Below are positions 5,853-61,069 of a DNA stretch of 64,000 nucleotides, in pieces (the stretch's first letter is position 1; each line of letters begins with the position of its first letter). This stretch comes from Heptranchias perlo (Eukaryota). A model generated the notes under the pieces. It was not told where the DNA came from, did no database searches, and worked only from the letters and a program-made list of their open reading frames with translations. Both the position numbers and the translations under genes were made by a program. The stretch covers positions 50,468,001 to 50,532,000 of the forward strand of contig NC_090337.1 in the NCBI RefSeq assembly GCF_035084215.1, read 5' to 3'.

Positions 5853-8800
5853 TTACATAATTGTACACAATTGCTGGGAAGATGCAGCAAGATTTGCAGC
5901 AAGATTTGCAGCAGGATTTGCAGTGTGATTTGCAGTGCGATTCCACACAGGAATACTTGTTTGCCTTGGGGCCACAGGTTTAGCACAAAGAGCAGCATAG
6001 TTAGAATTTTTGCTGCAAATTTCTTTAGTCTGAAGGCAAGCAAAGCAAAATTCTACATGGCATCTGGCGCATATGACATATTTACACATAGCTTTATGCT
6101 CTAAGAGTAACCCGCATGTAGGACAAGCACGGATTTTGGGACAGTTCAGAATCTTGCTGTAGGATAAAACTTTTGTGTCACAGTTTTTCAAAGTTTGCAG
6201 CTGGATGTTGGTGCACCCCTCATTGTCACATCGATCAGAGCGTGGTGCTCGGCCCTTCCACTCCTTCAGACATTGCCAGCAGAATTCATAAAACTTCCCT
6301 TTCCCGACTGTACAGATTCTACATCTCACCGAGAGATTTGTCAGATCTTTTCGCTCTACACAGCTTTTACATTCAGGGCACTTTTAAAAAAAAAAGACAG
6401 AATAATGAAATGAACACTTAAAAGAATATGCTGGTGCTAAAGTAGGGAGAAAATGGCTGCAATCAGTGTGCAACGCTGCTATAAAGTGATACAGACAATT
6501 TTGGACCTTAACGCTGAACTCAACGCACAGTCTTATCCCTGACCATCTGAACGTTTCTTACAGTGCCTGAAGGACCCCCCCACCAGCGCTATTTAAAGGG
6601 CCATGCAGGTGTTGCAGGTTAGTTGCTGGATTATTGCTTCTGGCTGCTGGTGGAATAGGAAGTGTTTTTTAAAGCTCCCTATTCTTATTGAGTTCCTACA
6701 CTACTTTTGAGAGCGCTTTGGCAGGTATTGCCTTACGGGTCGGAAAGTTACAATCCTGATGGAACAACATTCCTGCCAACCATGGGCGGTCTGCTAGGGC
6801 TCCCGTTGGGCATTGAGCATGACTGGGAGCATGCAGAGAGGCCACAGCCAGCAGGTCAAGCTACGAGGAGGCGCAGGGCATGGAGCAGGAGGCCCTATCC
6901 AATGAGGGCGTTCAGGGATCAATTCTCTTAACTCAACATGACTGAGGAGGATTGCATCCGATGCCTGAGGTTCACCAAGGAAGCCATCACCGAGATCTGT
7001 CAACTGGTGCGGCCACAACTGCAGCCTCAGAGCAGGGCAAGGACACCATTGCCTGTGGCTGTGAACATCACCGTGGCACTGAATTTCTACCGCTCAGGAG
7101 CATTTCAGGCCTCTGCTGGCGACATGCAACATCTCGCAGTATGCAGTGCACTGCTGCAAAAGGGAGGTAACAGATGCACTGTACCGCATGAGGAACAGGT
7201 TCATCACCTTCCCTCTTGACAGTCAATCAGAACGAGTGAGCACGGGGGTTCACCTGCTTTGCTGGCTTCCCCATGGTGCAGAGTGCCATGGACTGCACAC
7301 ATATTGCCCTGCGTGGCCCGCACATCAACTCGGCTGTCTTCGTCAACCGAAAGGGCTTCCACTCCCTCAACGTGCTGCTGGTGTGACCACACACATCGCA
7401 TCTTGGAGTCCGATGCCCACTACCCTGGGAGCATCACAATGCCTTTGTCATGCGGCAGTCCAATGTGCCAGCTATCTTTCATCCGACTCCGAAAGTCAAA
7501 GGCTGGCTATTGGGCGACAAGGGCTATCCCCTCACGACGTGGCTCATGACACCAGTCAGGAATCCACGTACATGTGCACAGCAGGCCTATAATGAGAGCC
7601 ATGCTGCCACATGCAACATCGTGGAGCACACCATAGGCCTCCTCAAACAACGCTTCCGCTGCCTGGACCGGTCTGGAGGAGCCCTGCAGTACTCCCCTGA
7701 GCGGGTGGCCAGATTTGTGGTGGTCTGCTGCATGCTGCACAACCTCGCCATCATGAGGGACCAGCCTTTGCCACCAGTGTCTGCAGAAGATCCTGAGGAG
7801 GAGGAGGAAGAGGAGGCTGAGGAGGAAGAGGCGGAGGAGCAGGAGGAGGGGTTGGAGCCGGAAGAGGAGGTGGAGGAAGATGCAAGGGTGCAGCAGGAAC
7901 CACACGTCTTGTCTGCAAGGGCTCTCTGTGCTCGCCTGATCCGTGCCCGCTATCAATAATTGGAACTACATCCCCCAACTCACCAACAGTCCTACATTCC
8001 CCAACTTTCCCCTCCCACAAGACAATCAAATCTCCCTCCATCAGATTACACATTGGTGTCCTTCTCAGCTCATTGCATAAATAAAAACCACCACCAAATG
8101 CAAAATCAAACTCTCATTTATGGATTAATAAATGAAAATATGCAAACATAACAGAACTATTCACCCTTGTGCATTCCCTTAGTGCCTGTTGTTCGTGTGC
8201 CTTTACCTATCCTAGTGCTCCTACAAGGTGCTTCCCCAGTGGCTGGAGCATGGGTGGTGGAAAGCTGCTGGCTTTCAATGAAGGAACGTCCAGATGGCCT
8301 TGGGGGACGATCTCGAGCAGCTCTGGGCCTGGAGGGCCCGGCTTCAGACTGCACCATCTCAGCATGGGCTGCAGCAGTCTGGCCTGGCTGGCCGACAGGC
8401 AACGACAGGGGCAGTGGTGAAGTGGCAAGGGTGGGAGCAGGAATGCTGTCGTCCTGAGAGAGGACAGCAGGTCTGAATGCCATGGTGCCACTGCCACTCT
8501 CCCGGGGCAGCGCCTCAGCACTCCTGGTGATTGGCTTGAGAACGGATTTCTGGAGTGCTGTGATGCCCTGGAAGCCCCGTTCCACAGTGGTCCCCGGGGC
8601 CACGATAGCAGCAGTCTGAACTTCCAATGCAGCAGTCTGAGCTGCAAATGCAGCAATCAGACCTTGGATGGCAGATGTTTGTGCTGCAATGGATGCTGCG
8701 ATATCAGTCATCAGACGCTGCATCATGGCGGATTCCACAGATGCGCTGATGGAGGTGACCACCCGTTCCATGTGGGAAAGGATGGGCTCCAAGCTCTGCG

Positions 8801-11800
8801 CAAAGCCCTGCGCAAAGTTGGAGCTGGACTCCTCCATGCCCCTTCTCAGGCTTTCTGGCAGGCTTTCCAGTGCCCCAAGCATTTGTTGGTGTACGCCCAT
8901 CATGGACCTGGCAATTACGCCCGTCTTCTGTAGCCTGGCCCATCAAAGTCCTCATCTGACTCCTCTGCAGCAGAACTAGTGAGTGACCTCGCCCTCCGGC
9001 GAGTTGGCTCCTGTGGTATCCATTCCCTCCGCCCTGGCTCCTGCGGACTTGTGCTCGGTGTCTCACCACATGCAGAACCCTCCTCTAACCTAACCTCTAA
9101 AGGACGTGCAGTGTCAGTCTCTGAGCTGGTGGGTGCGAGTGTCAGATCGAGTGACGGTGTGGCTTCAATGTCCCCCTCCTCCTCCTCCTCCTTCTCCGGT
9201 GCCGCCACGTGTTCTTGGGTATCTGCAATGACAAAGGGAAACAGTTTGAGTTGTGGAGTGGGGAAAGGAGCAAGTAAGAGGTGTGTGCTGACAGCATATG
9301 CAGCAAGTGAGTCAGAAAAGGTTATGGAGGAGGGAGATGTGGAAAAGGAGAAGGAGCATTAGATATGCAGAGATCCCTTGACTGGGACATCCAGCGGGGC
9401 ACATTGTAACGGCTGCAGCGACGGCCTGCCCAATGATCCGCAGCACCGTCTCATCAAGGGGGGTGAGGAGATGTAGACATGCCCGTCCAGCCTCAGGTCC
9501 CTCCTGCTGGCGGGTGTTATACACCACCTTCTCCTGCAAGACAGAGGACACCGTGGCAGTGAGTGTCCTGCAAGGTTTGTGGGTGATGTGCCTGACATGG
9601 TCGAATAGCTGCCAGTTTGTGTGACTTGAGTGGTGGTTGTGTGGCCTGCAAGTCTGGTATTATGTGCGGGTGAGATGCAGCATTGCGTATGGATGGCAGT
9701 GTTTGTTGGTGGGTGGTTGGGTGACGGGAGGTGTCGTGCATGGAGTATTGGTGCAGTTGGTTGGATGTGCCACTTGACACTTGCATTCACTCACCTTTAC
9801 CACTCGCGTCAAATCATTAAATTTCTTGCGACACTGCACCCACGTGTGTGGTGCAATGCTCCTGGCATTCACCTCCTGTGCCATGGTCTGCCGATGCCTA
9901 CGCAGCTGTAGTCTAGACAGTCTCCGGCCACCCTGCGGGTACCTGGCTGCCCTCCTTTGGTCCACACCTTCCACCAGGGCCATCAAAGCATCATCAGAGA
10001 ATCTTGGTGCCCGCTCTCTTGCTGGTGCAGCTACTCGTGATGCCATTCTCCCTTTTCCTACTTGGCTGTGTATTTGCCATTGGAAATGCGCCTGCACCTT
10101 TAAGAGGTGCAGGCAGCTGATGACATGAACTGTCCACGCCCCATTTCCAACTTCCTCATTCTCCATGCTGTCTCTCAGCAGCGAGGGCTGTGCTTGCTGC
10201 ATGGAGATTTCATGGTAAGTATCAGGCAGCACGAAGTTCATGTGCTGCCTGCGTTGGGTCCGGTGGGCGCAGGGTCGTAGCGCATTGCGCTACTATCGCC
10301 CAGAATGGACCCTTATCCAATTTTTCCCCCTTTTTATCCAAGCAGTGTGTGGTCTCCTTATTCTTCCTACTAAAATGCACCACCTCACAAGTATCTACTT
10401 GAAATTAATTTGCCAATTACGCACCGATTCTACAAGTTTATTAATTTCTTCTTGTATTTCATCACATTCTTCCTCAGTATTAACTATATCCCCAATTTGG
10501 TGTCATCCGCAAACCCAGCTTCCATACGGAGATGGTGAAAAGAAGATCCCCCTCATCACCCCGGAGAAATCCTTTTTGAGAAATTAGTGTGGAAACATCG
10601 TATCGACCACATGATGGCTGCATGTATATGGCCAGGATGTCCAAGTACATTAAAGCTAAATCCTCTAATTGAGACTTGGTACCCCAATCCAGGCGTACCA
10701 ACAACCCCTCCCCCATCCCCCCCAACACTCCCCCCACCCCCCACAGCACTTAGTAGAAATATAGTGATTTCCTCCGCCACAGTGAGCAGTACTTAGCAGT
10801 TTGGAGCCAATCCCCACCCTCCCCCACCCTTTCCCCTCCAATGAACATTACTCAAGTGATTGGAACCCATCCCCCTCAGCCAAGTAACACCCACTTCGCA
10901 CACTGACTATTGTTTTGGTGATTGTAAAGGCCACTCACTTATGGTTTTCACAGAATAATGGACAGAGAGGCGGAATTCAATCCTCAAAGTAAAACTCCCA
11001 GTCTACCATATCTCTCAAATCACAAATCAGTGGCCCTGGTAATAATTGTGCATTAAAATGCATAAAACTCCTGTCATTATAAAATGTAGAATTACATAGA
11101 ATTTACAGCACAGAAACAGGCCATTCTGCCCAATAGATCTATGCCAGTGTTTATGTTCCATACGATCCTCCTCCCACCTTACTTCAGCTCAGCCTATCAC
11201 CATAACCTTCTATACCTTTCTCCCTCATATACCTATCTGGCTTCTCCTTAAATGCTATTTGCCTCAGCCACTCCATGTGGTAGCGAGTTCTACATTCTCA
11301 CCACTCTCTAAGGAAATAAGTTTCTCCTGTATTCCTTATTAGATTTCTTAGTGACTATCTTATATTTATGGCCCCTAGTTTTGGACTCCCCCACAAGTGG
11401 AAACATCTTCTTTATGTCTACCCTATCAAATCCCTTGATAATTTTAAAGATCTCTATTCGGTCACCCCTCAGTCCTCTCTTTTCTAGAGAAAAGAGCCCA
11501 TGCCCGTTCAGTCTTTCTCACCGTGAAAAATGCCATGAGGGACCCCCTGTTTTTGTTTTAATTTCCCCTTTTAACAAGTGATTCTTAAAGGCAAACAGGA
11601 TTGCAATCAGAATTTGTTGGACAAAATTGTAATTGAACGATGGAAGGCCTTCAGGAGGGAAATGGTTCAGATACAGAGTGGACACATTCCCACATGGGGG
11701 AAAGGAAGGGCATCCAAAGCTAGAGCTCCCTGGATGACTAAAGATGTAGAGATTAAAATGAAACAGGAAAGGAGGCTTATGATAAATGTAAGATTCATAA

Positions 11801-14800
11801 TATAATAGAGAACAAAGCTGAATACAGAAAGTACACATTAGATCTAAAAAGGGAATCAGAGGGACAAAGAGAGAGTATGAGAATAGATTAGCAGCTAACA
11901 TAAAAGGGAACCCAAAAAGTCTTTTATAAACATATAAATAGTAATAGGGAAGTCAAAGGAAGGGTGGGGCCGATTAGGGTCAAAAAAGGAGATCTTCTTG
12001 TGGAGGCAGAGGGTATGGCTGAGGTACTAAATGAGTACTTCACAACGGTCTTCATTAGAGAAGAGGATGCTGCCAATGGAGGAGATAGTAGCGATATTGG
12101 AGAGGATAAAAATAGCGAGGTACTTAAAAGGTTGGCAGTACTCAAAGTAGAAAAGTCACCCAGTCTAGATGGGATGCATCCTAGGCTACTGAGGGAAGTA
12201 AGGGTGGAAATTGAGGAGGCTCTGGCCACAGTCTTCCAATCCTCCTCAGATATGGGGATGGTGCCGGAGGACTGGAGGATTGCAAATGTTACACCCCTGT
12301 TCAAAAAAAGGTAAAGGGATAAACCTGGCAATTACAGGCCAGTCAGCCTAGTGTCGGTGGTGGGGAAACTTTTAGACACAATAATCCAGGACAAAATTAA
12401 TTGGCACTTGGAAAAGTACGGGCTAATAAATGAAAGTCAGCACGGATTTGTTAAAGGAAAATCATGTTTCACTAACTTGATTGAGTTCTTTGATGAAGTA
12501 ACGGAGAGGGTTGATGAGGGTAGTGCGGTTGATGTGTATATGGACCTTCCAAAGGCATTTGATAAAATACCACATAATAGAATTCTTAGCAAAATTAAAG
12601 CCAATGGGATTAAAGGTACAGTGGCAGCGTCGATACAAAATTGGCTAAGGGACAGAAAGCAGAGAGTGGTGGTGAATGGCTGTTTTTCAGACTGGAGGAA
12701 AGTAGACAGTGGTGTTCCCCAGGGATCGGTGTTGGGACCACTGCTCTTACTGATATATATTGATGGCGTGGACTTGGGTATAGAGGATATAATTTCAAAG
12801 TTTGCAGATCTCATGAAACTCGGAAATGTAGTAAACAATGTAGAGAATAGTAGCAGACTTCAGGAGGACATAGACAGACTGGTGAAATGGACAGACACAT
12901 GGCAGATGAAATTTAATGCAGGGAAGTGTGAAGTGATACATTTTGGTAGGAAGAATGAGGAAAGGCAATATAAAATAAATGATACAATTTTAAAGGGAGT
13001 GCAGGAACTGAGAGACCTGGGGGTATATTTACACAAATCTTTAAAGGTGGCAGAACAAGTTGAGAAGACTGTTGAAAAAGCACGTGGGATACTTGGTTTT
13101 ATTAATACAGGCAGAGAGTACAAAAGCAAGGAAATTATGATAAACCTTTATAAAACACTGGTTAGGCCTCATTTGGAGTATTGTGTCCAATTCTGGGCAC
13201 CACACTTTTGGAAGGATGTCAAGGCCTTGAAGGTGCAGAAGAGGTTTACAAGAATGATTCCAGGGATGAGGGACTTCAGTTATGTTGAGAGACTGGAGAA
13301 TCTGGGGTTGTTCTCCTTAGAACAGAGAATTTTAAGGGCAGATTTGATAGAGGTGTTCAAAATCATGAACGGTTTTGCTAGAGTAAATAAGGAGTAACTG
13401 TTTCCAGTGGCAGAAGGATCGGTAGCCGGAGGACACAGATTTAAGGTGATCAGCAAAAGAAACAGAGGTGACACGAGGAAACATTTTTTTACGCAGTGAG
13501 TTGTAAGGATCTGGAATGCACTACCTGAAAGGGTGGTCGAAGCAGATTCAACTTTAACTTTCAAAAGGGAATTGGATAAATACTTGAAGAGAAAAAATTA
13601 CAGGGCTATGGGGAAAAGAGCAGGGGAATGGGACTAATTGGATAGCTCTTTCAAAGAGCCAGCACAGGCACGATGGACTGTACCATGCTATGATACTATC
13701 TTGCCTGAATCAACAGTGCTGATAGCCTTATTCTTCTATACCCGCACTCCATTCAGACCTTCAGAACTTTTTTTAATTCCTGTAATGACCCGTATTTATT
13801 GCTAACTAAAAAAATAAATTGCTGGGGCTGGATTACCCATTTGTATTCACAGTACTTTGCAGCAGCGAGTGTGGCAACCTTCTCTTCAAAATATTGCTGC
13901 TCATCATCAGTCAGCAGTGCATGTCTGCGAACCTCCACGTAGGACCATTCCTTGTTACACTTATTCTTTATAGCAGGACAGTGGAATGTGAAATGACCCT
14001 ACAACAGGAATTGAAAATTATATTGCAAAAATATCACTTTTAACAAATCACTAAAAAAAACACACCAAGCAAGAAATAAAACAGGAACGTGTACAAATGA
14101 ACTTCCGGACACACTGACCTGGTCTATTAGGCTCCGACACCAGCTAGTGAGTGAATTGGGGTCAACAGCGTGTCCACAGGACATTTCCACTCTCAGAACA
14201 TCTGGCTCATCATCTCCTGAAATGGACATCTCTCATTTGAATTATGACAAAGAAAGTCTACGGTTCAAAAAATATAATGCAAACGCTATCCACAAATTCT
14301 TTAACAGTCTTTTTCTTCAAACGAGTTGAAAACATGCTTGACAACCCATTTTCTTTCTTTGCTTACAAACACATAATGTAATTACTAACTACATCGAGTG
14401 TATCCTGGTGTGACTTGCACCATTATGAAAGTGCTCCATGTCTCTTTATCTCTCCAAAAATAAAGTATCCGAACACAATTTTAAATGAAGGCAATACCCC
14501 TCTAAAAAGAGATCAATATCACCTAAAATGAGTATCATTATAATCCTTCATCTTTTTGTCAGTAAGTTGAAAATACGTCACTTTGTCATTGGAAAAGTAA
14601 CAAACGCATCAAAGCGATATTTTGTATTATGTTGGAATTCGCCATCCAAAACCTGACTGGAGAAATAACAGTTATCAAACGCTAGAATTAGACTTTAGTG
14701 GTGTTAAAACGTCTCTTTATTTTCAAGCTGCCTTGTTACTGATGTGAACGGTTTGGTATTTTACCTGTGATCTCGTCCTTTCCCTTTACAAATTTCAAAG

Positions 14801-14846
14801 TACTGTCATTGGGATCGTAGCGCTTTTCTTCGACAGGATCCGTCAT
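5853..14846 (-). CDS. RBR (RING1-IBR-RING2)-type E3 ligase-like protein, 4 exons, 289 aa, degenerate RING1
   Basis: GT-AG exons with matching phases: 14846-14765 (MTDPVEEKRYDPNDSTLKFVKGKDEIT), 14216-14119 (GDDEPDVLRVEMSCGHAVDPNSLTSWCRSLIDQ), 13998-13837 (GHFTFHCPAIKNKCNKEWSYVEVRR...YCEYKW), 6380-5853 (CPECKSCVERKDLTNLSVRCRIC...FCWQCLKEW = IBR; RACPTCGLLLEHKAMCKYVICARCHVEFCFAC = RING2/Rcat). Total 870 nt, open. Confidence 0.9.
6782..7959 (+). pseudogene. Harbinger (HARBI1-like) DDE transposase, disrupted
   Basis: Fragments with motifs RCLRFTKEAITEIC, DCTHI..NRKGFHSLNV, WLLGDKGYP, VEHTIGLLKQRFRCLD, CCMLHN and an acidic tail; premature stop at 6929-6931 and frameshifts at about 7125-7440. Confidence 0.85.
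8157..10046 (-). pseudogene. Harbinger Myb/SANT-like (NAIF1-like) DNA-binding protein, spliced, probably disrupted
   Basis: RERAPRFSDDALMALVEGV...WVQCRKKFNDLTRVVK followed by a gtgagt donor; downstream coiled-coil/low-complexity exons at 8157-9220. Confidence 0.75.
11095..11520 (-). mobile_element. CR1 LINE 3' end (reverse)
   Basis: catagaatttacagcacagaaacaggcc tail plus RT C-terminal remnants. Confidence 0.7.
11540..13700 (+). mobile_element. 5'-truncated CR1 LINE (degenerate ORF2 reverse transcriptase)
   Basis: ORFs 11964-12314 and 12351-13397 contain VPEDWRIANVTPLFKK, QHGFVKGKSC, GVPQGSVLGP, FAD and LEYCVQFW; 3' ctatgatactat tail. Confidence 0.92.
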
Positions 14847-14939: not shown

Positions 14940-15110
14940 AAAACCAATCGAATGAAAGGGCTCCCCACGGGCCAATCGCATCAAACCAATGGAAGGTGGG
15001 TGGGTGTTTGCTTCGTGGGGCGTGGCTATGTTAAAATCTCGTAAAGTTTCATTTTCCTTTTCTTCTGAGCACAATATGATTCCCGGAACGGTTGGCTGTA
15101 CCGGGAAATC
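14940..15110 (-). promoter_or_regulatory. RBR gene promoter: ISRE, GAS, CCAAT boxes, GC box
   Basis: AGTTTCATTTTC (GAAAATGAAACT on -) at 15045-15056; perfect GAS TTCCCGGAA at 15080-15088; near-GAS TACCGGGAA at about 15099-15107; three CCAAT at about 14943-14990; GGGGCGTGGC at about 15017-15026; 100-260 nt upstream of the ATG at 14846. Confidence 0.75.
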
Positions 15111-15470: not shown

Positions 15471-15489
15471 CTACCAAAATTCCCAGAGT

Positions 15490-21529: not shown

Positions 21530-21883
21530 TCAGCTGCTCCCTCCTTGTAGCACGATCAGGATGGTCGATTTGTTTGTAATCCCGTTATCAAACAGTTTAT
21601 CCGTATCCCTCAGTTGCCGATTAGCAAACAGCGCTCGCATCTTTTCTTCTCTGGCTGTTGAAAGAGTTGTAACATCATTTAATAAACTGAATAAAAGTAT
21701 TGAAACAACTTGCTCCCGATCTGAATGCGCGGATACATTACCCGCGTTCGCTGGTAACTTGGCTATCAGTTTCCTCTTAATTTGTAGCGCAGTCGTTGCG
21801 TTAAACTCGTATTCCGAGTTGGCGACTTCGACCGGGATTGTTTTTCCTTCGATCCCACGTACGAACACTTGATACATCGTCAT
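21530..21883 (-). CDS. Single-domain ubiquitin-like protein (Ubl-A), 88 aa, C-terminus ...STILIVLQGGSS
   Basis: Exon 21883-21742, 87-nt phase-1 intron (gtaatg...caacag, 21741-21655), exon 21654-21530. Protein MTMYQVFVRGIEGKTIPVEVANSEYEFNATTALQIKRKLIAKLPANAAREEKMRALFANRQLRDTDKLFDNGITNKSTILIVLQGGSS aligns to ubiquitin motifs (QIFVKTLTGKTITLEV; RLIFAGKQLED; GIQKESTLHLVL). Confidence 0.85.
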   Translation of the reverse strand: MTMYQVFVRGIEGKTIPVEVANSEYEFNATTALQIKRKLIAKLPANAGNVSAHSDREQVVSILLFSLLNDVTTLSTAREEKMRALFANRQLRDTDKLFDNGITNKSTILIVLQGGSS

Positions 21884-21966: not shown

Positions 21967-22031
21967 AGTTTCACTTTGACTCCAGGTCAAAGGAAGGGAA
22001 ACAGTTTCACTCTGGATGGTATTTTTCACTT
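21967..22031 (-). promoter_or_regulatory. ISRE/IRF-E cluster upstream of Ubl-A
   Basis: AGTTTCACTTTG at 21967-21978, AGTTTCACTC at 22003-22012, TTTTTCACTTC at about 22022-22032; 85-150 nt upstream of the ATG. Confidence 0.7.
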
Positions 22032-26923: not shown

Positions 26924-27159
26924 GTCACAAGTAAAGTGCCTTAAGTATCTCAATGAGGTACATTTGGTTCTTTAACTATCATCCCACCGACTTTCATTGC
27001 CGGCGGGACTTCCCGATTCAGGACGCCCGCGTGCACACAGCTGCGTCTGTGGGGAATTCAGAAGTCGGCGGGTTGGACCCAGCTTCTGAACTCGCTCTGC
27101 ATTTCTGCAATTTTCGTAGCCCCCCACCTGCCCACAATTTATGTTTAAAATCGAGTCCT
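26169..27159. mobile_element. Harbinger-type MITE carrying the right arm of the inverted repeat
   Basis: Termini gggttcaatttt ... aaaatcgagtcc. Confidence 0.6.
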
Positions 27160-45700: not shown

Positions 45701-48700
45701 AAACAGGAAAAGTGAAACAGAATCTTATTAGATTGCCTGAGGAAAAGAAAAAAGCAGGCCAACACCAAGAGTGCAGATGGCCCGAACCTCTTAAACAAAT
45801 GAGGAAAATCTGCCAAGAGAAGTAGAAAATAAAAACACTTTTATTATGTGATTAACTGCAAATGGGAGGTTTTGGAAAGGGAAGAATATGTTGATGGGGT
45901 TAGATGAAGAAGGGAGGGAGGAGGCTCGTGTGGAGCATAAACACCGGCATGGACCTGTTGGGCCGAATGGCCAGTTTCTGTGCTGTACATTCTATGTAAT
46001 TCTATCAACCCTCTTAAAAAGAGATTTTAGGTATCATCCAAGATGTGCCTGCCAGTCCCATGTTAATGAGATACCTTCCCAATGACCCACAAACTCTAGT
46101 AAGGTCAAGCGTTTGAGGGAAAACCAAAGTAACTGACAGGAATGCAGCCCAAGGATTTTTGGGCCCATATCATCAATGTGATTGCAGTTCTGATAAAGTT
46201 TCATCGACCTGAAACATTAACGCTGTTTCTTTCTCCACAGATGCTGCCTGACTTGCTGAATATTTCCAGCATTTTCTGTTTTTATTTCATCAATGTGATG
46301 ATTAATTACCATTATATTCACCACATAATTAACATCAGCAGTGAAAGCAAATGTGTGCAAGAAAAATATAATTTCATCAACCACGTTTTTGATATTAATT
46401 TACTAAAAACAAGGAAAGTCCAGCATGGAACGGTCAATATGTTCTGTAAAAGTTAACAGTACAGCATTGAAATCAGAGTAAATTAATTATTCAACACCAG
46501 ACACTCCACTAAATCTCTTAACTTTTGGTGCTATTGTAAAATGGGCAATTATCAGAGTGGATCGGCCGCATATTATACACCTCGCCTGATTTTCCTTTTC
46601 ATTGACTTCTTACCTTGTCCATTGTGGGTTTTAGACACCATTCATTGCAGTTGTCCTGTACAAAAATTAAATTAAAAATTGCAATGAAGTATAAAATTTG
46701 TGAGATCAGATGTATGGTATGTAATTTTGAATAAATACATTTCTGTGCATTTCGGAATAAGAAATAATCATGACGTAACAATACATTGCAGATTTAGTAG
46801 GAGATGCCGTCACCATGCTCAATGTACTAGAGCATGAACTCGGACGCACTTCACAATCAAGCTGCCAAATGCTAAGAAATACATGCAGTTATTCAAATTA
46901 CTTAGTGTGGTAGTCTCATATACTTGCTAGCACCATAGACCACAAGCGCAGAACAAAACATGCAACAGGGCACAAAACCTGACTTCTGGAAGCTACATAA
47001 ACCATTGCTGACATAGGTCTGCTCACAAGGGCCATATATACCACTGTCATGGTCCAGTCATGGTGAAGGTACCATGTACCAACAAGTAAGCTAAATAGCC
47101 AGTGAAAACTAATTAGCCTGTAAGTTTTATCTTCTTGAGGTGATACTGAATCTTGTGTGTGGGTAATATATTTCATCCAAGAATAAGCTAAAATCCCAAA
47201 TGTTGCATAAAGTAGCAAGATAGGATAAGAGCTGCAACTGGATAAGAGCTAATGGTTTAAGTGAAGACATGTGGAAAAATTAAAAGAATGCATTGAAAAT
47301 TTACTATAAGGCAGCCATTGTTAGGAGCCATTACATGCTTTCAAGTTCCATCTGCTCCTGACTTAATCACAAGTGTACATAATGACAATGACAATTTTCT
47401 GGAACACACAGCGAATTCATCTCCAGCAAAATGAATACTCTACACTATTCTCCATTAAAATATTAGCATTAATAATAATGGCAAGTATCTTACCTGGGAT
47501 TTGTGAAACTCCAACGCAAGTGGAATAGTAATGCACTCATTAAATTTCTGATAATACATCCAGAAGTCAACAGCTTCAAATCGTTTTAGTTGGAATGTGA
47601 GAATTTGAGGCAACTGTTTAAAATAGTATCTCTGCAAAATGTAAGGTCAAGTTAGTGCAACAAATCTTAAAAGGAATCTTGTTAATGAAAGATAGAGATA
47701 AATGTTATGTTTGTATTTCATTCATAATTAGGATGAAGATATGCAGAAATAAATATCTATAATACATTTAAAATATTACAACTACATGCACCTCCTGTTA
47801 AATTTTTACATTATAAATTCCTATGTCCACATTTATAATGAAAACTGCCCATGTAAACTTGTCACGCTGTAATTACAGCCTTTCACCAGTGAAGGTGCTG
47901 ACATCCAGTATTTCTAAGGGCCTCAAGGAGGTGATTTCACCTTGAAAAAATCAGACTTTGCATCCATTCAGCTGCCTCTGCTGCTTCTCCCCTTCCTTTA
48001 ACAGCCAACGACTTATGGAATTATATAAACTATCTTGGTGACAGAGTGGCAAACTTACTGTTTCTGTTTTAGTCTTTGTGCTACAATGGTCACAATAAGG
48101 CTCGTTGTCGCCTTCCATAGTATCCTCCTTCAAGAACTCTTGAAGAGCTGTTTCCTTTAAAAAGAAAGTAACAGGTTAAAATCAGAATATTGCAGCACGT
48201 CGAAGGCCTTGCACTAGTAGATAGTTATTTACAATGAGTTCAATACATGTCATACAGTTATTAAATCACACAGCGACTCCGATTTAGCCACATGCACTAA
48301 TTTTAGTAGAAAACACCTTATACACAATACAGGTAAATGTACTTCACATGGGTGTATTTACTTAACAAACATCTACCACCATTCAGTGACCAAGGAAGTA
48401 AACCAACCACAATGATCAAAAAAACACTCACACACTCTGCTTTTGATTTTACCAACAAATGCACAAAAAGGTTAAAGTTCACATACATACGTGAATGAGT
48501 ATTGAAATCACATGACCAACAATTGTGTCTGTTATTCATTGTTTATTTACTAATCAGGCATGCAATTAGCCACATCTGGATTGCCAACATCTCACACAGT
48601 TGTTAAATCACGGCACACAATGCATTATGGGACGTTGTGCTAGTTCCTCGTGTTCCATTGTCAAATCACCATGATGTAAATCTTAGAGGAGTTATGTAGT

Positions 48701-51700
48701 CAGAGCTGCTTAAGATTTGCTGGCTCTACACTGAAGGTTGGTGATGCATTTATGCCACTGTGAGCAGTACAGCAGTGTGAAAATCCTGGTCTGACAAGGA
48801 TAAGTGGAAATTCTATCTGGCTCTATTTCATTTGCTTTATCAAAGACATCACGCTGTTTAGTTAGGAAGAAACTAAATGGCAGATTCAAACCAGTTAGAT
48901 ACATTTTTCCTAAGTACTATTAAACACCTTTCTATAGATATCTGATTGCATACAAGTGAGGAAGATTAGAATTTAGACAAAAGAATATATACTCTGATTA
49001 ATTTTCAGGTTAAAGTCATCTAGGGCAGAATGCAAAAATATCAAAGGGTAAAAATAGCAGCTTACAGACAGAAGCAGTAACTTTGGACCAGAATTGAAAG
49101 TGAGTGGTGCATCAAAGGTCCAGGGGTTAAAAATATATGCGGGTATAAGCAAGAAGAGCACGTAAGATGGCATATTTGGAACTTAAAAAGAACAAGAAAG
49201 TTCAGAGCAGCACTGACCATAGTAGTATCGATAAAATTCAGAGAGACAAGAAAGGTTGTGACTGAGAAAAAGAGGTTAGTGCTTAGGAGACAGAGATGGA
49301 TCACCTATCAAACAACAAACTTTTTCTTCTTTACTGTCTAGAGCGGCAAGGGATGCGTTAGAAGAGCTTTCCATATATGGAAGCAGTATTCAAGAAGTCA
49401 AGAGTGGAAAAGTGTTTGGAACAAGAGCAAACTGAGCTTCTTGGAGACAACTTTAGCAATGGAGATGTGTATGTTCCATTTGAGATCAGAAGAAATGAGG
49501 AAGCCAGGAATATCAATAGAATGAAGGGCTAACTGCATTCAATTTAGTTTAAACATTTTGCTCTCCAAGTTAGCAAAAATGCAGTTGCTCAGTTCTCAAT
49601 TAAAACATAATGTAAGTGCCTGCAAGTCTTGGATAATAAAAGATAAATATTGCAATGTCCGAGACTGTTTCAAATGTGAATTACTTTGGATTAATTTTGT
49701 GATGTAGTGGATATCTAAAGTGTCACTGGTACTGGACTCCACAAACAGAATCAATGTAAAAAAGGGATGTTTGCCACATTGCTGTAAAGTAATTTAATAA
49801 TCTGAATACAAAATATGGGTTTAACTCGTTTGCTTTATAATGTTTTAATCTTACCAGATGTCTAATCTTTGCTGAAGAGTAAGCTAAACGAATGGGTAGA
49901 GGTACATCCAGAAAGAAACAGTCATCCTCAAAAAGATTTGCGCACACTGAGCACTTCATGGATAGAACCATTATGATCTGATAAAACTAAAAGACATAGC
50001 ACAATGAGCACTGAGCCCATGATCTGTCATTCAGAATTTAACAGAATACTGAAAAAAAAAACTGATATTTTGAATCCCATCTCAAAAAATACTGATGCTT
50101 CATTGTTGCCATTGACAAATCTTCAAGCCTTTTTTTTAGGTGTACAATATACTTTGGAGGGTGGGTGGGGGGGGAAGAGGATAAATACCGTGGGGGAAAA
50201 AATCCTCGACCATTCCAGTTCACTCTCTCCCGTAACTTTGGAAGGAGTGCGACAGAAGGGCTGGAAATCCCCAGCCATTGCTGGCACTTCTTGCACACCC
50301 TTGCAAGGCCAGTGACGTGAAGGGGCAGGGACAGGAGCACTGACTCCCTATGTCGAGAAGCCCTGTGACATCAGCATCGCAGAAGGTCAGTACATCTTGG
50401 GAAGCTGGTACGTCCAGTGAGAAGAGGCATACCAGTCTCTTCCCTGGTGGAAGTGTGGCCTACCTGGATTTCCAGGCCTAGATCATTGCCTGGTCCCATG
50501 AAGGGGTCAGAAATGCTATAAGATTCTTCTGGCGTCCTTATAAAAGGAGCTGATGGGATAAATGCGTGTATCTTTCAAGGGGCAGTGGGGGGAGTCCCTT
50601 CACCCCCGCCGGGCCTGGAACTGGCATATTCCACTGACTTTTCAGCCTATTGGGGCAGGCAGGTGCCCAAGATCTGCCCCTAGAGGCGTGGGTATTTGTC
50701 ATGGCCATTCAAGTCAGGAGCCCTCCCTTTGATCCACATACTCTGTTAGGGCCAGAGGTCACTAGCAGGCACACTACTGGCATAACAGCTGGGATTGTAC
50801 CCTGCGGATTTTAAGGGTGCTGGATTTTTTTTTTAATTTTAAGATTGACAGTTTTGACAATTCACAGAACGTGACACAGCTTCCTGTTTGTAAGCTACAA
50901 CTTCCTGTTTGTAAACCACAACCCTGTCTACTGATGGAAAAAGTCTGAGAGCACTGTAGACAGTGTTTAGAATCCAGGGAAACATCTATTAGAACAGCTC
51001 AATATTTTAAAAATAGCTATAAAAATGTTTATAGAAAAACAGCAACAAAGTAAAGCACCACTATCTGAGGTCATTTTGATAGCAAAATCAATGTAACTTA
51101 ATATAAGGGTCTGTGAACTTCAATTGAAAATAATTTGACAGATCTCAGTTAATGTGTCATTAACTGCTGCATTTGTATTTCAATTTATTATGCAAGAGAA
51201 AAGGAGTGCTAATCACAGTGCTGGGAAATGAACTAATGCCTTAAGGAAGGGGCTTACCTTTCATCAGGCACACAATAAAAATGATCACGGCTGTAGTGAC
51301 GACACAATATCACTGAAATTCTTAAAGATAAGTTGTCAGTGTTTGCTTTACCCTCCCAATCCCCCACGGACTGTGTCTCAGTGCCAGGATACTCAGTGGT
51401 GTATGGGTGGAGGGTGCATCCTGAGGAAGATAGAAGCCCTAGGCCCGTGGTGTGACCATGACTTTTAGAATCGAGTTGATTCAAGGAGAGGAGAGAAGCC
51501 ACTCCCTGGAAACACAATGCGTGAAGAGTTCCGGTCAATGAAAGCCAAGTTGGCTGCAGAGGCAGTGACACCGTACGGTCAAACTAATACGTGAACTGTG
51601 ACACTGTACAACAGGTAAAAAGTCAATCAAATATCACTGTGTATAATATGAACACAGTACAATAAATTATAATACAAATATAGCACATTAAATAACTATT

Positions 51701-54700
51701 CAAAGTAAATGATGCTAACTATATATAATTTATTATTTCATCTATATGCCCCCATTCCTTCTGAATCCCTTTCCCTTCCATTACCAGATTTGGCTCCTGC
51801 TCCATCTCAATCTCAGCCCCTTGCTCCCTCCCAATCTCCAGTTTCTTTCACTCATATATGTTACAACATGTCCTGGGTGGTTTCTCTAAATCTGGCCCAG
51901 TACCCACTTTTGATCCAATGCACACTGGTTGTCATCTTGCCCTGGGCTTTTAAAAAGATATAAAATGATAATTGAATAAAGCAGTAATGAGGTACGTGTT
52001 AGAGATATAAAGAGAGAGAGAGTGGGTGATATACTGAACAAAGCAAACAGATGAAAGGACTTACAGAATGAGGGAGAGAGAAAGGATGTGGAAAAGGAGT
52101 TGGAGACACATGGGAAGGTGTAGAAAAAAGGGGAAAAAGGAAAACAGAAAAACTAAGAGTCAGACAAGCAGAGATCCAGTTACAAGAAGAGAGATGCAAT
52201 TTTTAAAAAATTGTCGGTGGGCACTACCTCAGATTAACCTTACCTCGACAATGTTATGCTCCTGATCCACTTCAGTCTTCAGTTTGCTTATCAGATTGCG
52301 GAAACATTCTTCTATATCACACTGTTTTGAAACTTGAAAAGAAAAATTGTAAAAAATAATGTTTAAATGAACATATACCTCTATACAGTACATTAAAAAC
52401 CTTAGCCTGGATTTCCCGATACGTGCTGGCATCAGTGGAAGGGCAGCAGACATGCACTTCTGCCCGACCGTTAACTCTGCTGTTAATCCTGGCAGGCTTC
52501 CTAGGGTACTGCACAGTTAAGCTAGTTTATGTACTCGTCCTTGAATGGGCTGGAACCAACAAACTTTGATCCAGAGGTGATTGCACTAGCACTGAACTAA
52601 GCCGATTGCTTATTCATCTACTATGTGAAGACTAAGGCTTGTGTCATATCCAGTAAGCTAAATACAAAACAAAGGTTTCTGTTCAGCCCCAAGACAATGC
52701 TACAATACCAAATATTGTGTGTTTGAGGTGTGTACTTTTGTTCATAGAGGGAGAGCATGATAGAAATATCTGATGAAAGCCAAAAAGGTATTGCCATCAT
52801 CACCATGGCACACAAGCTCAACCATACAGCTCTCTCCATACAGCAGCTCCCTCTCTTTTCATCTGTTTCAATTGCACTCAATATATTCTATTTTCCGCTT
52901 TCCTTTTTTCAGAGAGAGAGAGAGATTCAAAAGCCTATGAACAGATTCTCTGGCATTCCCTCACATTTGCTTGCCTTTTTGTTCCTCTGTGTCCTTATAA
53001 GGACGATGTACTGGAAGCTGTTGCAAAACCATTACTTTTCCTTGTGCTGGTGTGCACCAGGATTTTAGGAAATGGTAGCAATCCAGGTCTTCCCTCTTGA
53101 AAATTAAAAGAAAAAAAGGATTCCAAAACCTCGAAACGTTGCGATAACATCAGGGATGCAGCCACGACACACCGAGATAAAATATTATTGGACTAAATGC
53201 CCTTAGCGCTGCAGAAATAAAGTAGGACTTTGCCACTCTCTCCCTTCTGGCATACACCATGGATTCACAGCTTGGTCATTGCAATTTTTTGAATACATTC
53301 TCAGGCTTTCACTACAAGAAATGTCTTAGGAAACTTAGTGTTGGCTTCCCCTACCGAGTCTTCAATGTTGGCTTCACTTAATGGACCAACTTAATCGCAG
53401 AAAAGTGACAAATGGACCAGGCAGCAGAATACTAAGAATTGGAGAAACATTTTTTTTGATCAATGGTTAGGTAGATAGATACATAGACACTAAATGGATA
53501 GATTTGTCCAATGCTTACCATTCAGTCCCAAGCTTGTGGTCAACTCATTTGTCTCCAAAGATTTTACCTCTCTGCTTTCTAATTTGTTGAACAGACTTTT
53601 CAATTTGTGTATAAAATCCACATCTGTTTCTAAGCTAGAAAAAATATGGAATTTTAACATTTAAGAAAACCAATTCTGTTTGCAATTTAGGAACAGAATA
53701 ATCTTGAAATTTCCAATGGAGTAATCCTAAATCCTTTAGGGTCTCTGAATGGTTGACAAATATCTTTTAAATGCAAATAAGCATTTGGGCACATACACAA
53801 AGGGGGTGAAATTCCTTCTGTCGATAATTTCAGCGAAAAAGTCATGAGAGTAGAAAATGGGAAATCCTACTTTGTATTCAAACTGACTTTTTTTTGGAGG
53901 AATTTCACCTCCAAACATGCTTGTTCAAAAAAATCACACTAACACTCTATGCCATGGGACGGTAACATACAAAGGTTCCGTCCATGCAACTTACAATACA
54001 GTGAGCTTCCAGTCCTAGCTAACTGGGGATAACTCATATGCTGTTATATAAGCAGGAACTTCACATTTTTTAGCAGAACAAATACACTGGCTAATGCTTT
54101 GGCTGGTATTCCACTTTACATAATGGATTATTTCTGCATTTTATGGATATTTCTATCTCTTTGCTGAAGTTTGAAAATTTCATTCCATTTTCCAGCCCCT
54201 TGCATCCATAATACGAAAAACAGAATTTGTTTTGGATATTATTTGCACTTTTCAAAGTGAACAATGTAATTGCTGGAGAACACTAATTTTGCCTGCCCCA
54301 ATATTACTGCTCATTAACTGCAACTAATTAGATGCACAGTATAGTTTCTAGACCCAACCCAATAATGTACTTTAATTTCAGAAACACCCATCCAACATTT
54401 TTATTTTCCTTATTTCCTACATCAGCCATTCTGAGTTTGATTAGCCAACCAGTACTGAATTACAGACTGTTCTGTGTTTTAGACTTGTCGCCCTCCCCAC
54501 ATTGACTGAGCACTGGATGGGTGCAGTGTGCCCAAAATGCACTACATCTCTCCAATCTTCAGTTACCCTTGAATCATCACAAGTAGTAGTTTCTAGCCTC
54601 TTGTGTTCTGACTGCATTATACACTTTGTTCTCAATTTCCAAGCAATAGTTCACCAAACTTTCCAGTTCAAGATTTTTCTAAATCTGGATCTTTACATTT

Positions 54701-56174
54701 ACAGAACCCATAAACGGTCTTACCAATGACCAATAGTGCTCTTTTAGCAGTCCGAAGTAATTCTAATGCCTACCTGGCAATGTAATGTTTAACTTCTGGG
54801 GTCATGAACCATGTTTGAAGCAACGTGTTCAGATAACAAGTGGCTCCTTGATTGATCAATCCAACAAAAGCTATGCATATAATAAAAAATGGACATTAAA
54901 GGAAAAGTTGATTAGAATCAAAACAGTAGCTGTTCTGCTGAGAGTCTTTCTTTACAACAACCTACATTTATATAATGCTCCTCACATGTAGGGAGGCATA
55001 TCAGAGTGCTTCACAATAAGGAGGAAAAAGATACAGTAGACAAGAGAGAGAGGGAACTGTGCAGAGCGTAGTGGCTGAATGAATGCTTAGCTGAATGAAT
55101 GAATGAATGAATGCCGGTCGCTTGTCGTTTTAATTCCCCCTCCCACTCCTACTCTGACCTCTCTGTCCTCGGCCTCTTACACTGTTCCAATGAAGCTCAA
55201 CGTAAGCTCGAGGAACAGCACCTCATCTTTCGCTTAGGTACTTTACAACCTTCCGGACTCAACATTGATTTCAATAACTTCAGATCATAACCACTCTTTT
55301 GTTTCTTAACCTGTCCCATTACCAGCCTCTTTGCCTTGCACCATCATCCCTTTTGTCATTTAATCACTTGTGACCTCTACCCTATCCCATTTTGTTCTTT
55401 CCTTCCCTCCCCTCCCTCCCCCCTTTCCCTGGCTCTGTACTTGTTTAAAAACTGTTAACTCTTTAACATCTTCCAGTTCTGATGAAAGGTCATCGACCTG
55501 AAACATCAACTCTGTTTCTTTCTCCACAGATGCCGCCTGACTTGCTGAGCTTCTCCAGCACTTTTTGTTTTTGTTTCAGATTTCCAGCATCGGCAGTATT
55601 TTGCTTTTGAGGTTACATAGCCCCTTGGCTGAAAAGCCTGGGGAATCTAGATGCATGTGGAGTATCCAGATTTAGTGCGGACATTGTGGACGGTGCCAGT
55701 TAGTATGCTGAAGATGTCAACTTGGGTGGAGGTCCACTTTCTGCCTGCATAGTACGCTGGAGGATGAATTTACAATTCTACAGTTCCACTGTTTCCCTTT
55801 TGGTGTGAAAGATCATCGATCTGAAATGGATAACTGTTTCTCTCTCTCTCCACAGATGCTGCCTGACCTGCTGAGTGTTTCCAACATTTTCTGTTTTTAT
55901 TTCAGCATTTGAACCTACTGCTTTTGTTGCCTTACCTGGTCTTTTTGAAATGAATCCACCAAACCCACTGAAAATGCTTTTCGTTGTACCTGTAAAAAAT
56001 CACCGAAAGAGTTGTAATAGCGGGGGCAGACTCTCGTACTGTTGTTTACAAAGCGATCATCAATCCCTGAATCGGCAGCTCAGTATTAAAGTATTGTCTT
56101 CATATTAATACACCTATGATTAAGTGAGAGTCGGGCTGCTTACCTGTACTTCTCCTGTTGATATGTGGCCACAT
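30717..56174 (-). CDS. Ubiquitin/Ubl-specific peptidase (peptidase C19), USP18-like catalytic-domain-only protein; about 368 aa core, about 434 aa with optional micro-exons
   Basis: Phase-consistent GT-AG exons: 56174-56144, 55989-55936, 54870-54774 (Cys box [23 protein letters not shown]), 53634-53519, 52332-52244 (QCDIEECF), 49986-49855 ([12 protein letters not shown]), 48154-48059 (YCDHC), 47631-47494 ([12 protein letters not shown]), 46655-46614, 34255-34130 (His box [20 protein letters not shown]...WYYFND), 32267-32245, 31886-31831 (TAYLIMYRR), 30823-30717 (stop; less certain). Lower-confidence in-frame exons: 44865-44835, 41798-41772 or 40417-40391, 40951-40920 or 39567-39536, 36635-36528. 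Confidence 0.85.
30919..31232 (+). mobile_element. LINE (CR1/L2-group) 3' end with A-rich tail
   Basis: [25 protein letters not shown]-type ORF end; tail shared with 1155-1290 and 59135-59335. Confidence 0.7.
34130..34255 (-). CDS. USP exon with the catalytic His and Asn/Asp boxes
   Basis: 126-nt exon reading [42 protein letters not shown], flanked by tttag| and |gtaact. Confidence 0.9.
34822..35270 (-). mobile_element. Deu-type tRNA SINE (near full-length)
   Basis: (gaaa)n tail, shared core, tRNA-like head gggacttgaa..actcagagg..tgctac. Confidence 0.7.
37500..39036 (+). mobile_element. 5'-truncated CR1 LINE with uninterrupted RT ORF (young copy)
   Basis: ORF 37438-38958 is open through all RT motifs ([18 protein letters not shown]) to the natural stop; 3' cttctatgattctat. 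Confidence 0.95.
39474..42234. repeat. Tandem duplication of about 1.38 kb (39474-40854 and 40858-42234)
   Basis: Both copies begin gaggtactt..gcagagatgg and end gggtagatgttga; nearly identical, as the paired ORFs 39656/41040 and 39978/41362 also show. Confidence 0.95.
42280..43745 (-). mobile_element. Degenerate Harbinger remnant nested in a CR1 3' fragment (42085-42279 and 43747-44040)
   Basis: Starts GGGCTAGAAATT; Myb/SANT remnant [16 protein letters not shown]; homologous to 6490-6700 and 9530-10020; CR1 text resumes after it. Confidence 0.65.
44530..44825 (+). mobile_element. CR1 LINE 3' end
   Basis: [17 protein letters not shown] motif; actatgatactat tail. Confidence 0.75.
45420..45670 (-). 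mobile_element. CR1 RT fragment
   Basis: WIRNWL...QGS...ADDTKL remnants. Confidence 0.55.
54774..54870 (-). CDS. USP exon with the catalytic Cys box
   Basis: 97-nt exon reading [31 protein letters not shown], flanked by tag| and |gtagg. Confidence 0.9.
55115..55610 (+). mobile_element. Penelope-like element 3' fragment
   Basis: [23 protein letters not shown] (GIY-YIG C-terminus) followed by the ctgatgaaagg...gatgc.gcctga tail. Confidence 0.7.
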
Positions 56175-56430
56175 CTTGTGGAACACGCGGAACAGGGAAG
56201 ACAAACTGCACCTGCAAGTACAGAAAATAATGACCAGGAGTTTCGCGGCTCGTTTAACTCCAGTCACCGACCACATCGCCCAAGTACAGTCTAGTCCCAA
56301 AACGTGTGGATTGCTCGCCGTCTTGCACCATAGAAACTGCGATTATTATTTTTTTCTCTCTACTAAGGACGATCCCCTTTATTATTTGCAAGGATCGGTA
56401 TTTCTCAGTTACAGTAAAACAAAACCTTCA

Positions 56431-56516
56431 ACTTTCCGTTTCAATTTCCCTATTTGCATTGTGACTTTGTTTGCAACGGTGCAGACGAGAAATAAGGGAG
56501 TTTAGTTTCAGTTTAC
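56431..56516 (-). promoter_or_regulatory. ISRE/IRF elements upstream of the USP gene
   Basis: ACTTTCCGTTTCAATTTCCC at 56431-56450 (GGGAAATTGAAACGGAAAGT on -, three GAAA units at 6-bp spacing) and AGTTTCAGTTTAC at 56504-56516; locally CpG-richer DNA 250-340 nt upstream of the ATG. Confidence 0.75.
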
Positions 56517-59335: not shown

Positions 59336-60011
59336 GTGGAATCTCCACCAGTAAGATAAACTCACAGCTGCAAGGGTGGAAAACCTGGCAGTGATACATT
59401 GAGACCTGAGGGGAATTAAAAGGGGTGGAAAAGAGGTCAAGAGGAATACTTTTCTCAAGCCATGATTAGTTAGTAGCTGGGGCCTATATGAAGGCAGAAG
59501 AGCCCAATATTCGGCCTTCTCCCTCCATCCAGTGACTTAGGGGGCTTACTGCCAGTACCGCAGGGACCATCACCACCATTCTCCAGGCTGTCTTCGGGGT
59601 GGTAGTCAGTAAGCAGGGAAATATGATGGTTTGGCGACCCTCACCTCTCCAAGAGATGAGCAGGGAAGGAGGAGGAGGAAAATTGAAATTGGCAAGGAAT
59701 GCAACAGTAGGCTTCCTAACTGATTTTCCCACTTTTTCCACCACTACCCCACCTGACCTTGGGTGAGATAATGGTTGAAAATCCAACCTGATATCTCTGA
59801 ACTCTGGAGATTAAAGATTTCTTTTTTAAAGTAAGGAGTATATGAATCTACTGCTTGAAATTATAATCTCATAATTTATGAGAGAATTGCTCGTGCTCTG
59901 TGATCTATCATTTTGATGAGCATAAAAACACTGAAATATGGCAGTAGAAGGAATGAAAGAGCAGCCTTTGATTTTAAGGTTTGGCTGTAAACAAGAAAAG
60001 TGAGTAAAAAT

Positions 60012-60035
60012 GAAACTGAAAGTCTTATATAAATA
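60012..60035 (+). promoter_or_regulatory. ISRE plus TATA box of Ubl-B
   Basis: GAAACTGAAAGT at 60012-60023 followed closely by TATATAAA at 60026-60033, about 85 nt upstream of the ATG at 60116. Confidence 0.8.
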
Positions 60036-60115
60036 CTCTGACCGTGCTCTCAGCTCATAAGTGAGCTCCAAATTTCACAGCAAGTCATACAACAGTCAGT
60101 CTGAGGAAATTTGGA

Positions 60116-61069
60116 ATGGGCAGCCAATTCCAGGTCTTTGTAATAGGCATTAAAAATGAACGGATTTTAGTGGATGTCGGAAAAACAGAGGAAGAAATGA
60201 ACCGATTGGTTGTTTCAGAGTTTAGGAAGTTGCTGTTACTAAAATACCCTGGCAACATTGGTAAGTAGCAGTTAATTGTTTTTTTTTTGAAAGACATAAG
60301 TTAACCTAGAGTTGGGTACATAAAAGAAAGTGGCCCATTACCAGTGTGATGTGATGAACTGGATGTCCCTCTTCCTGGTGGGGAAGCAGTGGGGCTCTCT
60401 AACCTATGACTTGATCTGCATCATGATTAATCAGAACTGCACATCTAAAGCCTCGCCTCCCTACTAGCATTTGGATACAACAGGCGGGGGAGGGGTGGCT
60501 AATGGCAGCTCCTGCAGGGACAGGGGGAGAAAAATCCTGATCAGGGCAGGTAGGCAGCAGACGGTATAATGGCGTCATTTTCCAACATTTCCAACCAATC
60601 CCACCTGAGGTGGGACAGGATAATGTAGGGAAATCCAGCTTGAAGTCTTCTACAATGAAATATAACAGGTTCTGATCTTCCAATTTACAAATACGCTTTC
60701 TTGTATCGGTTTAGTTTTAAAAGTTGATTTTACATGAATAAATGTAGGTGATGGGTGAAGATTTGCACAAGATATCTGTGGGCCATATCTGCCATTTTCC
60801 ACATTTAAAATGATCACCATTGTGGATTATCTGTGTTTATCATTATCATTGAAGCCAATCATAAAAGGCCATATTTTATATTGACTGTGCAATTTAAAAA
60901 ATGTTTATTATTTACTTAATTTGCAGTAAATGATGCACGCCTGCTTTTTGCTGACATTGAACTGGAAGACAAAGAAACATTCGGGAAATACCAGATTAAG
61001 AACAGATCTACCATCCTGGTGGTGCTACAGCTGGACGGTGGGGCTGCACAGTTGCACTTTTTCAACTAA
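60116..61069 (+). CDS. Single-domain ubiquitin-like protein (Ubl-B), 95 aa precursor, ...VVLQLDGG-AAQLHFFN
   Basis: Absent from the ORF track. Exon 60116-60260 (|gtaagt) plus exon 60927-61069 (ttgcag|), with a phase-1 intron at the same position as in Ubl-A. Protein MGSQFQVFVIGIKNERILVDVGKTEEEMNRLVVSEFRKLLLLKYPGNIVNDARLLFADIELEDKETFGKYQIKNRSTILVVLQLDGGAAQLHFFN. Confidence 0.88.

Follow-up and report, generated by a model that had tools for sequence, protein, structure and literature searches.

Vertebrates have few ubiquitin-like (Ubl) modifiers, the textbook example of an interferon-induced one being ISG15. We analyzed a window of 64,000 nucleotides (C13:50468001-50532000, the whole stretch of DNA under study) from the shark Heptranchias perlo, whose 3.25-Gb genome was searched, and which carries in this window genes for two Ubls, a RING1-IBR-Rcat (RBR) E3 ligase, and a ubiquitin-specific protease (USP). 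This Ubl/RBR/USP neighborhood is a real, conserved module separate from ISG15, and its three families may act as an interferon-switched tagging module, a reading drawn from sequence to which we assign a probability of about one half. Like the ISG15 system, the module combines a Gly-Gly Ubl bearing a pro-extension, promoters of the interferon-stimulated response element (ISRE) type, an E3, and a USP47-related protease. In contrast to ISG15, the window Ubls have one domain rather than two, a tail that is mostly not LRLRGG, and a 6-residue insertion, and whereas the ISG15 system (ISG15, UBA7, UBE2L6, HERC5, and USP18) relies on a HECT E3, the window module has an RBR E3 and its genes are clustered.

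Parkin, HOIL-1, and the Ariadne ligases share with the window ligase the RING1-IBR-Rcat layout and the catalytic cysteine, as well as, in fused relatives of the window ligase, a Ubl ahead of the RBR. The window RBR differs in that it is bare, has half a RING1, and has its Ubl in a separate gene, and the Ubl of its fused relatives usually ends in Gly-Gly. The Parkin Ubl domain and allosteric ubiquitin bind RBRs without conjugation. In bacteria, the Bil operon also places an antiviral Ubl beside processing enzymes (10.1101/2023.09.04.556158, accessible text), a likeness of analogy; Bil encodes an E1, an E2, and a deubiquitinase, whereas in the shark cluster we found an E3 and a USP and no E1 or E2.

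Two of the three families have recently been named. PMC12234341 (2025; here and below, the accessible part of its text and tables) gives the name ARIT to the RBR clade and the name USP18-like to a USP47-like clade and reports that both are induced by virus and gamma interferon (IFN-gamma) in salmon cells, ARIT being among the most strongly induced salmon genes (log2 fold 11.6-13.5 after IFN-gamma). Interferon-inducibility, a central element of the original prediction made from this window, is thus borne out in salmon for the ligase and a USP47-like protease. The same paper finds ARIT in monkeys and not in hominoids, placing the loss before the hominoids, and suggests that ARIT could be an E3 for ISG15; its accessible part gives gene coordinates with no remark on linkage and no description of the Ubl or of a CaaX tail. 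Virus-induced trout genes in PMC11258392 include "RNF144A-A", which is matched to ARIT by name only in the accessible text. Our literature search, for which subscription journals and closed supplements lay mostly out of reach, returned no paper in which the Ubl or the cluster is described; the zebrafish gene is not mentioned in the accessible passages of 10.1101/693333, and induction of the Ubl in other fish was not found in the accessible supplements of PMC7573153.

Four genes in the middle of a larger array

Four spliced genes could be rebuilt in the window, as the original prediction had it, with the RBR, Ubl-B, and USP genes on the minus strand and Ubl-A on the plus strand. The RBR and USP exons are 100% identical to NCBI-listed H. 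perlo proteins. Splicing with GT-AG ends is seen for the three RBR introns, the intron of each Ubl gene, and eight USP introns, all joined in contigs of four runs from a single sample (the RNA status of which was guessed by the tool and is not on record). The features, in window positions, are as follows.

5853..14846, minus strand: ARIT-family RBR E3 ligase gene, 289 aa (P0003); exons 14846-14765, 14216-14119, 13998-13837, and 6380-5853; 3 introns joined
15046..15062, minus strand: tandem GAAA motifs of the ISRE/interferon regulatory factor (IRF) type, 209-216 nt upstream of the RBR start
21530..21883, minus strand: Ubl-B, 88 aa, one ubiquitin-like domain (P0001); exons 21883-21742 and 21654-21530; intron joined in contigs
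21968..21977, minus strand: ISRE/IRF-type motif, 94 nt upstream of the Ubl-B start
26972..56276, minus strand: USP47-like ("USP18-like") deubiquitinase gene, catalytic domain only (P0123-P0125); eight 5' introns joined; end at 26972 per the NCBI model, alternative stop at 30717
54870-54774 and 34255-34130, minus strand: USP catalytic exons with the Cys box and the His box, respectively
39468..42235, minus strand: 1.39-kb tandem duplication, 98.3% identical, doubling two USP insert exons
56432..56514, minus strand: ISRE/IRF-type motifs, 165-238 nt upstream of the NCBI-model USP start
60007..60022, plus strand: tandem ISRE/IRF-type motif with a TATA-like box just after it, 103-109 nt upstream of the Ubl-A start
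60116..61069, plus strand: Ubl-A, 95 aa, one ubiquitin-like domain; exons 60116-60260 and 60927-61069; intron joined in contigs

All four genes lie at the span given in the original prediction, and a search of the genome and 400-kb flanks showed that the window is the middle of an array of about 280 kb (C13 50.335-50.615 Mb) that extends past both edges and holds four single-domain Ubls, four RBR loci (one a lone last exon), and four USPs plus a partial USP copy. No gene families beyond these three turned up between 50.335 and 50.615 Mb in a crude exon scan that may have missed other genes.

The ubiquitin fold of the Ubls is supported by Pfam PF00240 and by an Atlas model with a template modeling (TM) score of about 0.8 to ubiquitin clusters. 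All four shark Ubls have two exons and a Gly-Gly followed by 2 to 20 residues, and they are 36-46% identical to one another and 30-41% identical to ubiquitin. Ubl-A ends in LDGG at the canonical place, followed by an 8-residue extension; the Gly-Gly falls at the ubiquitin 75-76 position in Ubl-A and two other array Ubls and not in Ubl-B. Teleost, dugong, and metagenomic (L091) Ubls also keep Gly-Gly and an extension. Together these sequences form a group of 10 of the 20 tree rows (shark, teleost, dugong, alligator, and two metagenome sequences; support 92/89, below the threshold for a starred node) whose hallmark is an insertion of about 6 residues after the second strand. The Gly-Gly is at the exact ubiquitin position in six of the seven members that have a tail, and the tails are PGG in four, DGG in one, and also RGG; being unlike the RGG of ubiquitin, the PGG and DGG tails would fit a dedicated protease.

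The taxonomic range of the Ubl rests on few sequences, because, when cluster representatives were searched with a profile of the Ubl alignment, the 150 matches listed were all multi-repeat polyubiquitin-type proteins of at least 293 aa, none of which was used; a word search with Ubl-B gave two proteins among six candidates. A 117-member chordate Atlas cluster of 92-aa ubiquitin-domain proteins is named after an E3 ligase, a weak hint at Ubl-ligase adjacency.

That the Ubls are not ISG15, as had been predicted, is clear from their single domain and their LDGG and QGG tails, where ISG15 has two ubiquitin domains ending in LRLRGG, and they are 21-37% identical to the C-terminal domain of shark ISG15. 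The shark ISG15-type genes are separate from the cluster, since two-domain ubiquitin-like frames lie on another contig, C28: nine such frames of two subtypes form an expanded ISG15-type array there (C28:33.93-34.05 Mb; L096-L098), and the three examined end in RLRGG, two of them with an extension.

The RBR protein has a degenerate RING1, an IBR, and an Rcat, with the Pfam IBR domain called twice. Its Rcat cysteine, C213, whose retention had been predicted, is invariant in 110 of 110 relatives and aligns with the Rcat cysteine of ARIH1/2; it is followed by KN or KY in vertebrates (CKN, CKY) and by KH (CKH) in four distant relatives. Throughout the family, the first CxxC and the C5/C6 pair are absent from RING1, while C41, H43, C67, and C74 are kept in 107 to 109 of the 110 aligned sequences, so that one zinc site is missing and the canonical two-zinc C3HC4 RING1 is not present in the window RBR. 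An AlphaFold model built with the 110-sequence alignment (predicted local distance difference test score [pLDDT], 87.4) finds HHARI, Parkin, ARIH2, and HOIP in Foldseek searches (top E values, 1.7e-7 to 1e-6), with whole-chain TM scores of 0.26 to 0.37 that are low, as expected for flexible RBRs.

The C terminus carries a CaaX-type motif, CTIM (window 5853-5867, minus strand). CaaX-type ends occur in 14 of the 110 relatives, among sharks, lungfish, amphibians, and mammals, and also in L082 and L105, and monkey ARITs in the PMC12234341 alignment end in CLIL. ARITs bearing such ends may be anchored to membranes by prenylation. Relatives of the window RBR (best 120 of 497) come from sharks, teleosts, lungfish, amphibians, alligator, platypus, xenarthrans, manatee, and colugo, and none was found in viral contigs (0 of 70 stretches). 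The window RBR belongs to ARIT: it is a bare RBR with no transmembrane tail, and the carp and alligator sequences in the PMC12234341 alignment match its relatives P0091 and P0321. That paper calls the RBR structure of the clade typical, whereas the RING1 of the window family is without one zinc site. Four divergent ARIT-like genes lie outside the array (C38 22.54, 28.62, and 29.48 Mb; C18 18.99 Mb; L103-L107), with no Ubl in the 10 to 20 kb around each.

The USP has an intact Cys box, His box, and following Asn/Asp (Pfam UCH, E = 1.7e-42), in agreement with the original prediction; its assignment to the USP18 type did not hold. The closest solved relative is USP47 (110 bits, against 70 bits for USP18), and in a tree of nine rows of exon peptides, which leaves the sister group of the window clade open, the window USP and array USP1/2 form one clade (100/100) apart from the USP18-type genes. 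The last USP of the array pairs with a gene on C21 (95/95), and both have a double-cysteine CC Cys box where the window USP has CY. The C21 gene lies about 50 kb from a match to PEX26, which we take to be the neighbor of human USP18. The CY Cys box, the separate clade, and the PEX26 synteny on C21 rule out the window USP as a strict USP18, and since PEX26 maps to C21, the array is not the mammalian USP18 locus; the C21 His-box exon alone gives no separation (27.9 bits for USP18 and 29.7 for USP47). Most likely the window USP is a member of the USP18-like clade of PMC12234341, as indicated by the NCBI USP47-like label, which that paper also describes for its clade, the tree, and the ARIT linkage.

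The USP18-type gene that closes the array occupies C13:50590678-50614662, and the PEX26-linked copy occupies C21 57.81-57.93 Mb. Two near-equal PEX26 matches (C21 57.756 and 59.769 Mb) lie about 2 Mb apart in opposite orientation, reflecting a duplication or an assembly artifact. The copy number of the USP insert exons varies, sawshark relatives P0128 and P0129 holding several repeats of them.

An ISRE/IRF element within about 350 nt of each start codon had also been predicted, and a strict ISRE-type motif (AAANNGAAASY, chosen after the sites were seen, so that its ratio to background is descriptive) is indeed found on the sense strand upstream of all four window start codons, at 94 nt (Ubl-B), 103/109 nt (Ubl-A), 209 nt (RBR), and 165/238 nt (USP), that is, 94 to 238 nt away. 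The motif occurs on either strand in 2.9% of 20,000 random 350-nt array windows. All four array Ubls, which are paralogues and so not independent, have it 88 to 109 nt upstream; the rate in random 150-nt windows searched on one strand is 0.8%.

Linkage and fusion in other species

Linkage of the families in other species, proposed as a check on the prediction, is seen in salmon and in a teleost-like contig and partly in alligator and dugong. On salmon chr7, the coordinate table of PMC12234341 places USP18-like at 23.856-23.862, ARIT.1 at 24.019-24.045, and ARIT.2 at 24.100-24.110 Mb, from which USP18-like and ARIT.1 are 157 kb apart. When metagenome contigs were scanned with the ARIT alignment, 15 loci emerged. 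One of them, the teleost-like contig L084, packs into 12.5 kb an ARIT, a Ubl, another ARIT, and a USP; its ARIT is nearest to wrasse and grouper ARITs (74-78% identity), and its Ubl has two exons, a PGG-F tail, and a tandem GAAA motif 62 nt upstream. Uncharacterized Ubl and IBR relatives in bony fish had been surmised; the teleost Ubl and ARIT were found, and the RBR and USP families had already been named in PMC12234341. On the AT-rich, intronless L091, a free Ubl ending in PGG-FR directly follows ARIT.

Altogether, nine of the 15 loci hold a ubiquitin-family match, and six are without a Ubl, one of these with its RBR at the contig edge. The Ubl stands in frame before the RBR in six loci, with Gly-Gly at the joint in five of these; we take the six, which are divergent and intron-poor, as non-vertebrate. 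Two candidates were set aside: L094 has RGG before its RBR but no Pfam ubiquitin domain and was not counted, and the match in L083 lies on the other strand, in an LRLRGG-type exon that may be unrelated. L086 contains (12495-12737, minus strand) a free Ubl ending in RLRGG beside a Ubl-Ubl-ARIT fusion, its closest relative in the tree (98/93), possibly an independent split. Among 184 RBR-family protein records, two join a vertebrate Ubl to ARIT: in the dugong model the Ubl follows ARIT and ends in PGG-A, and in the alligator model it precedes ARIT and its tail is missing.

Borders, duplications, and mobile elements

Upstream, the array abuts a satellite of at least 53 kb (C13:50268001-50321024) with offset steps of about 29 or 58 bases; downstream lie exons of other genes, which we take to be ephexin-like and EF-hand and for which a structure search gave no match. 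Recent segmental duplications inside the array account for the partial USP copy and for an orphan copy of the last exon of the window RBR.

C13:50342622-50415534 and 50364757-50366745: duplicated segments, 93-97% identity

Within the window, a 32-bp tandem repeat (15221-15467, 7.7 copies, 93% matches) lies just upstream of the RBR promoter motifs. The long last intron of the RBR gene contains transposon frames (7387-7956, plus strand; 8160-10289, minus strand) that are presumably Harbinger-like, of DDE and Myb/SANT type, and a USP intron holds an open 516-aa reverse transcriptase frame (37408-38955, plus strand), presumably from a CR1/LINE-type element.

A proposed tagging module and its rivals

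Our preference for a tag with its own writer and eraser follows from a cleavable Gly-Gly fusion and then split neighbors that keep the Gly-Gly, a pro-extension, and a linked protease. Interferon would switch on the Ubl (whose induction we presume), ARIT, and the USP together, and the neighboring USP would trim the pro-Ubl to its Gly-Gly and later remove the tag. An E1 and an E2 borrowed from elsewhere, UBA7 or UBA6 being guesses, would charge the Ubl, and ARIT would take it on the Rcat cysteine C213 and pass it to targets, with CaaX forms of ARIT working at membranes. More tentatively, we propose that a new Ubl modifier with its own writer and eraser may have arisen from a pre-vertebrate Ubl-Gly-Gly-RBR polyprotein, been divided and brought under the control of interferon in jawed vertebrates, been kept from sharks to afrotherians (ARIT to Old World monkeys), and been lost in apes. 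In the literature covered we found no account of the Ubl family, the linkage of the three genes, the Ubl-RBR fusions, the incomplete RING1, or the C-terminal CaaX motif; ARIT and USP18-like had already been named.

Several observations weigh against a tagging module. As had been noted for the window, no E1 or E2 accompanies the genes, and none of 28 ThiF and 61 UQ_con matches (both lower bounds) lies on the contig of the array. Binding of an E2 by the half RING1 is uncertain, because RING1 is without the first CxxC and the C5/C6 pair, and the His two residues past C213 is replaced by Tyr or Asn in vertebrates. Two di-Gly Ubls had been predicted, and Ubl-A is canonical, but Ubl-B, like its sawshark relative, has the tail QGG-SS, in which Gly-Gly comes two residues ahead of its place in ubiquitin, and would be a non-conjugated or atypical member. 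Two array RBRs lack the strict promoter motif within 350 nt, and ISG15 was the sole induced ubiquitin-like gene among those examined in PMC12234341. As for the comparative evidence, fusion L081 is without Gly-Gly, as a regulatory Ubl domain would be; four of the five Gly-Gly fusion Ubls fall outside the vertebrate Ubl group, itself supported by only 92/89, and the fifth, L082, is too short to place; a USP is present in just one of the 15 metagenome loci and groups weakly with the window clade (56/80); and the dugong and alligator models may be artifacts of automatic joining, adjacency being shown either way.

The strongest rival holds that the Ubl is a split-off, unconjugated regulatory domain of ARIT that binds the ligase in the manner of the Parkin Ubl domain; ARIT would then transfer ubiquitin or ISG15, with the USP reversing this. 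It gains from the Ubl-RBR fusions in six of 15 loci, one lacking Gly-Gly, from the misplaced Gly-Gly and short tail of Ubl-B, from the failure of the ThiF and UQ_con scans of the contig to find an E1 or E2 in the cluster, and from the proposal in PMC12234341 that ARIT is a possible ISG15 E3. We nevertheless consider it less likely than the tagging module, as the Gly-Gly, which a purely regulatory domain would not have to retain, is exact in six of seven tailed members and present in five of six fusions and is then followed by short removable extensions, and as a protease gene accompanies the Ubl-ARIT pair in both shark and teleost.

It is improbable, in our judgment, that the Ubl, once processed and free, acts as the effector, for example as a decoy or inhibitor of viral and host deubiquitinases or as a released signal like free ISG15, with the USP maturing it and ARIT being a co-regulated ubiquitin ligase. 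The fast-diverging tails (RGG, DGG, PGG, and the short QGG), the family-specific insertion, the strong promoter motif for each Ubl, and the location of Ubl-B and ARIT on separate contig pieces are consistent with such a role, which leaves unexplained why non-vertebrate loci repeatedly have the Ubl fused in frame to ARIT. Equally little credence is due to a co-regulated cluster of interferon-stimulated genes that tandem duplication and shared enhancers hold together although the products are not biochemical partners, for while the 93-97% identical duplications inside the array, the USP18-type paralogue at its edge, and the four divergent ARIT-like genes with no Ubl in the sequence fetched around them fit it, vertebrate interferon enhancers do not explain Ubl-ARIT fusion or adjacency in non-vertebrates (nine of 15 loci overall).

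Even if the Ubl is a regulator of ARIT, a free-standing Ubl regulator and a prenylated RBR with half a RING1 would be new. If instead the tagging module is real, it would constitute another tag, linked to its ligase and its protease, and a new branch of innate immunity that would provide the orphan ARIT and USP18-like enzymes with a substrate. It would be a second antiviral tagging system, one that humans lack, and would set humans apart immunologically from fish models and monkey models alike.

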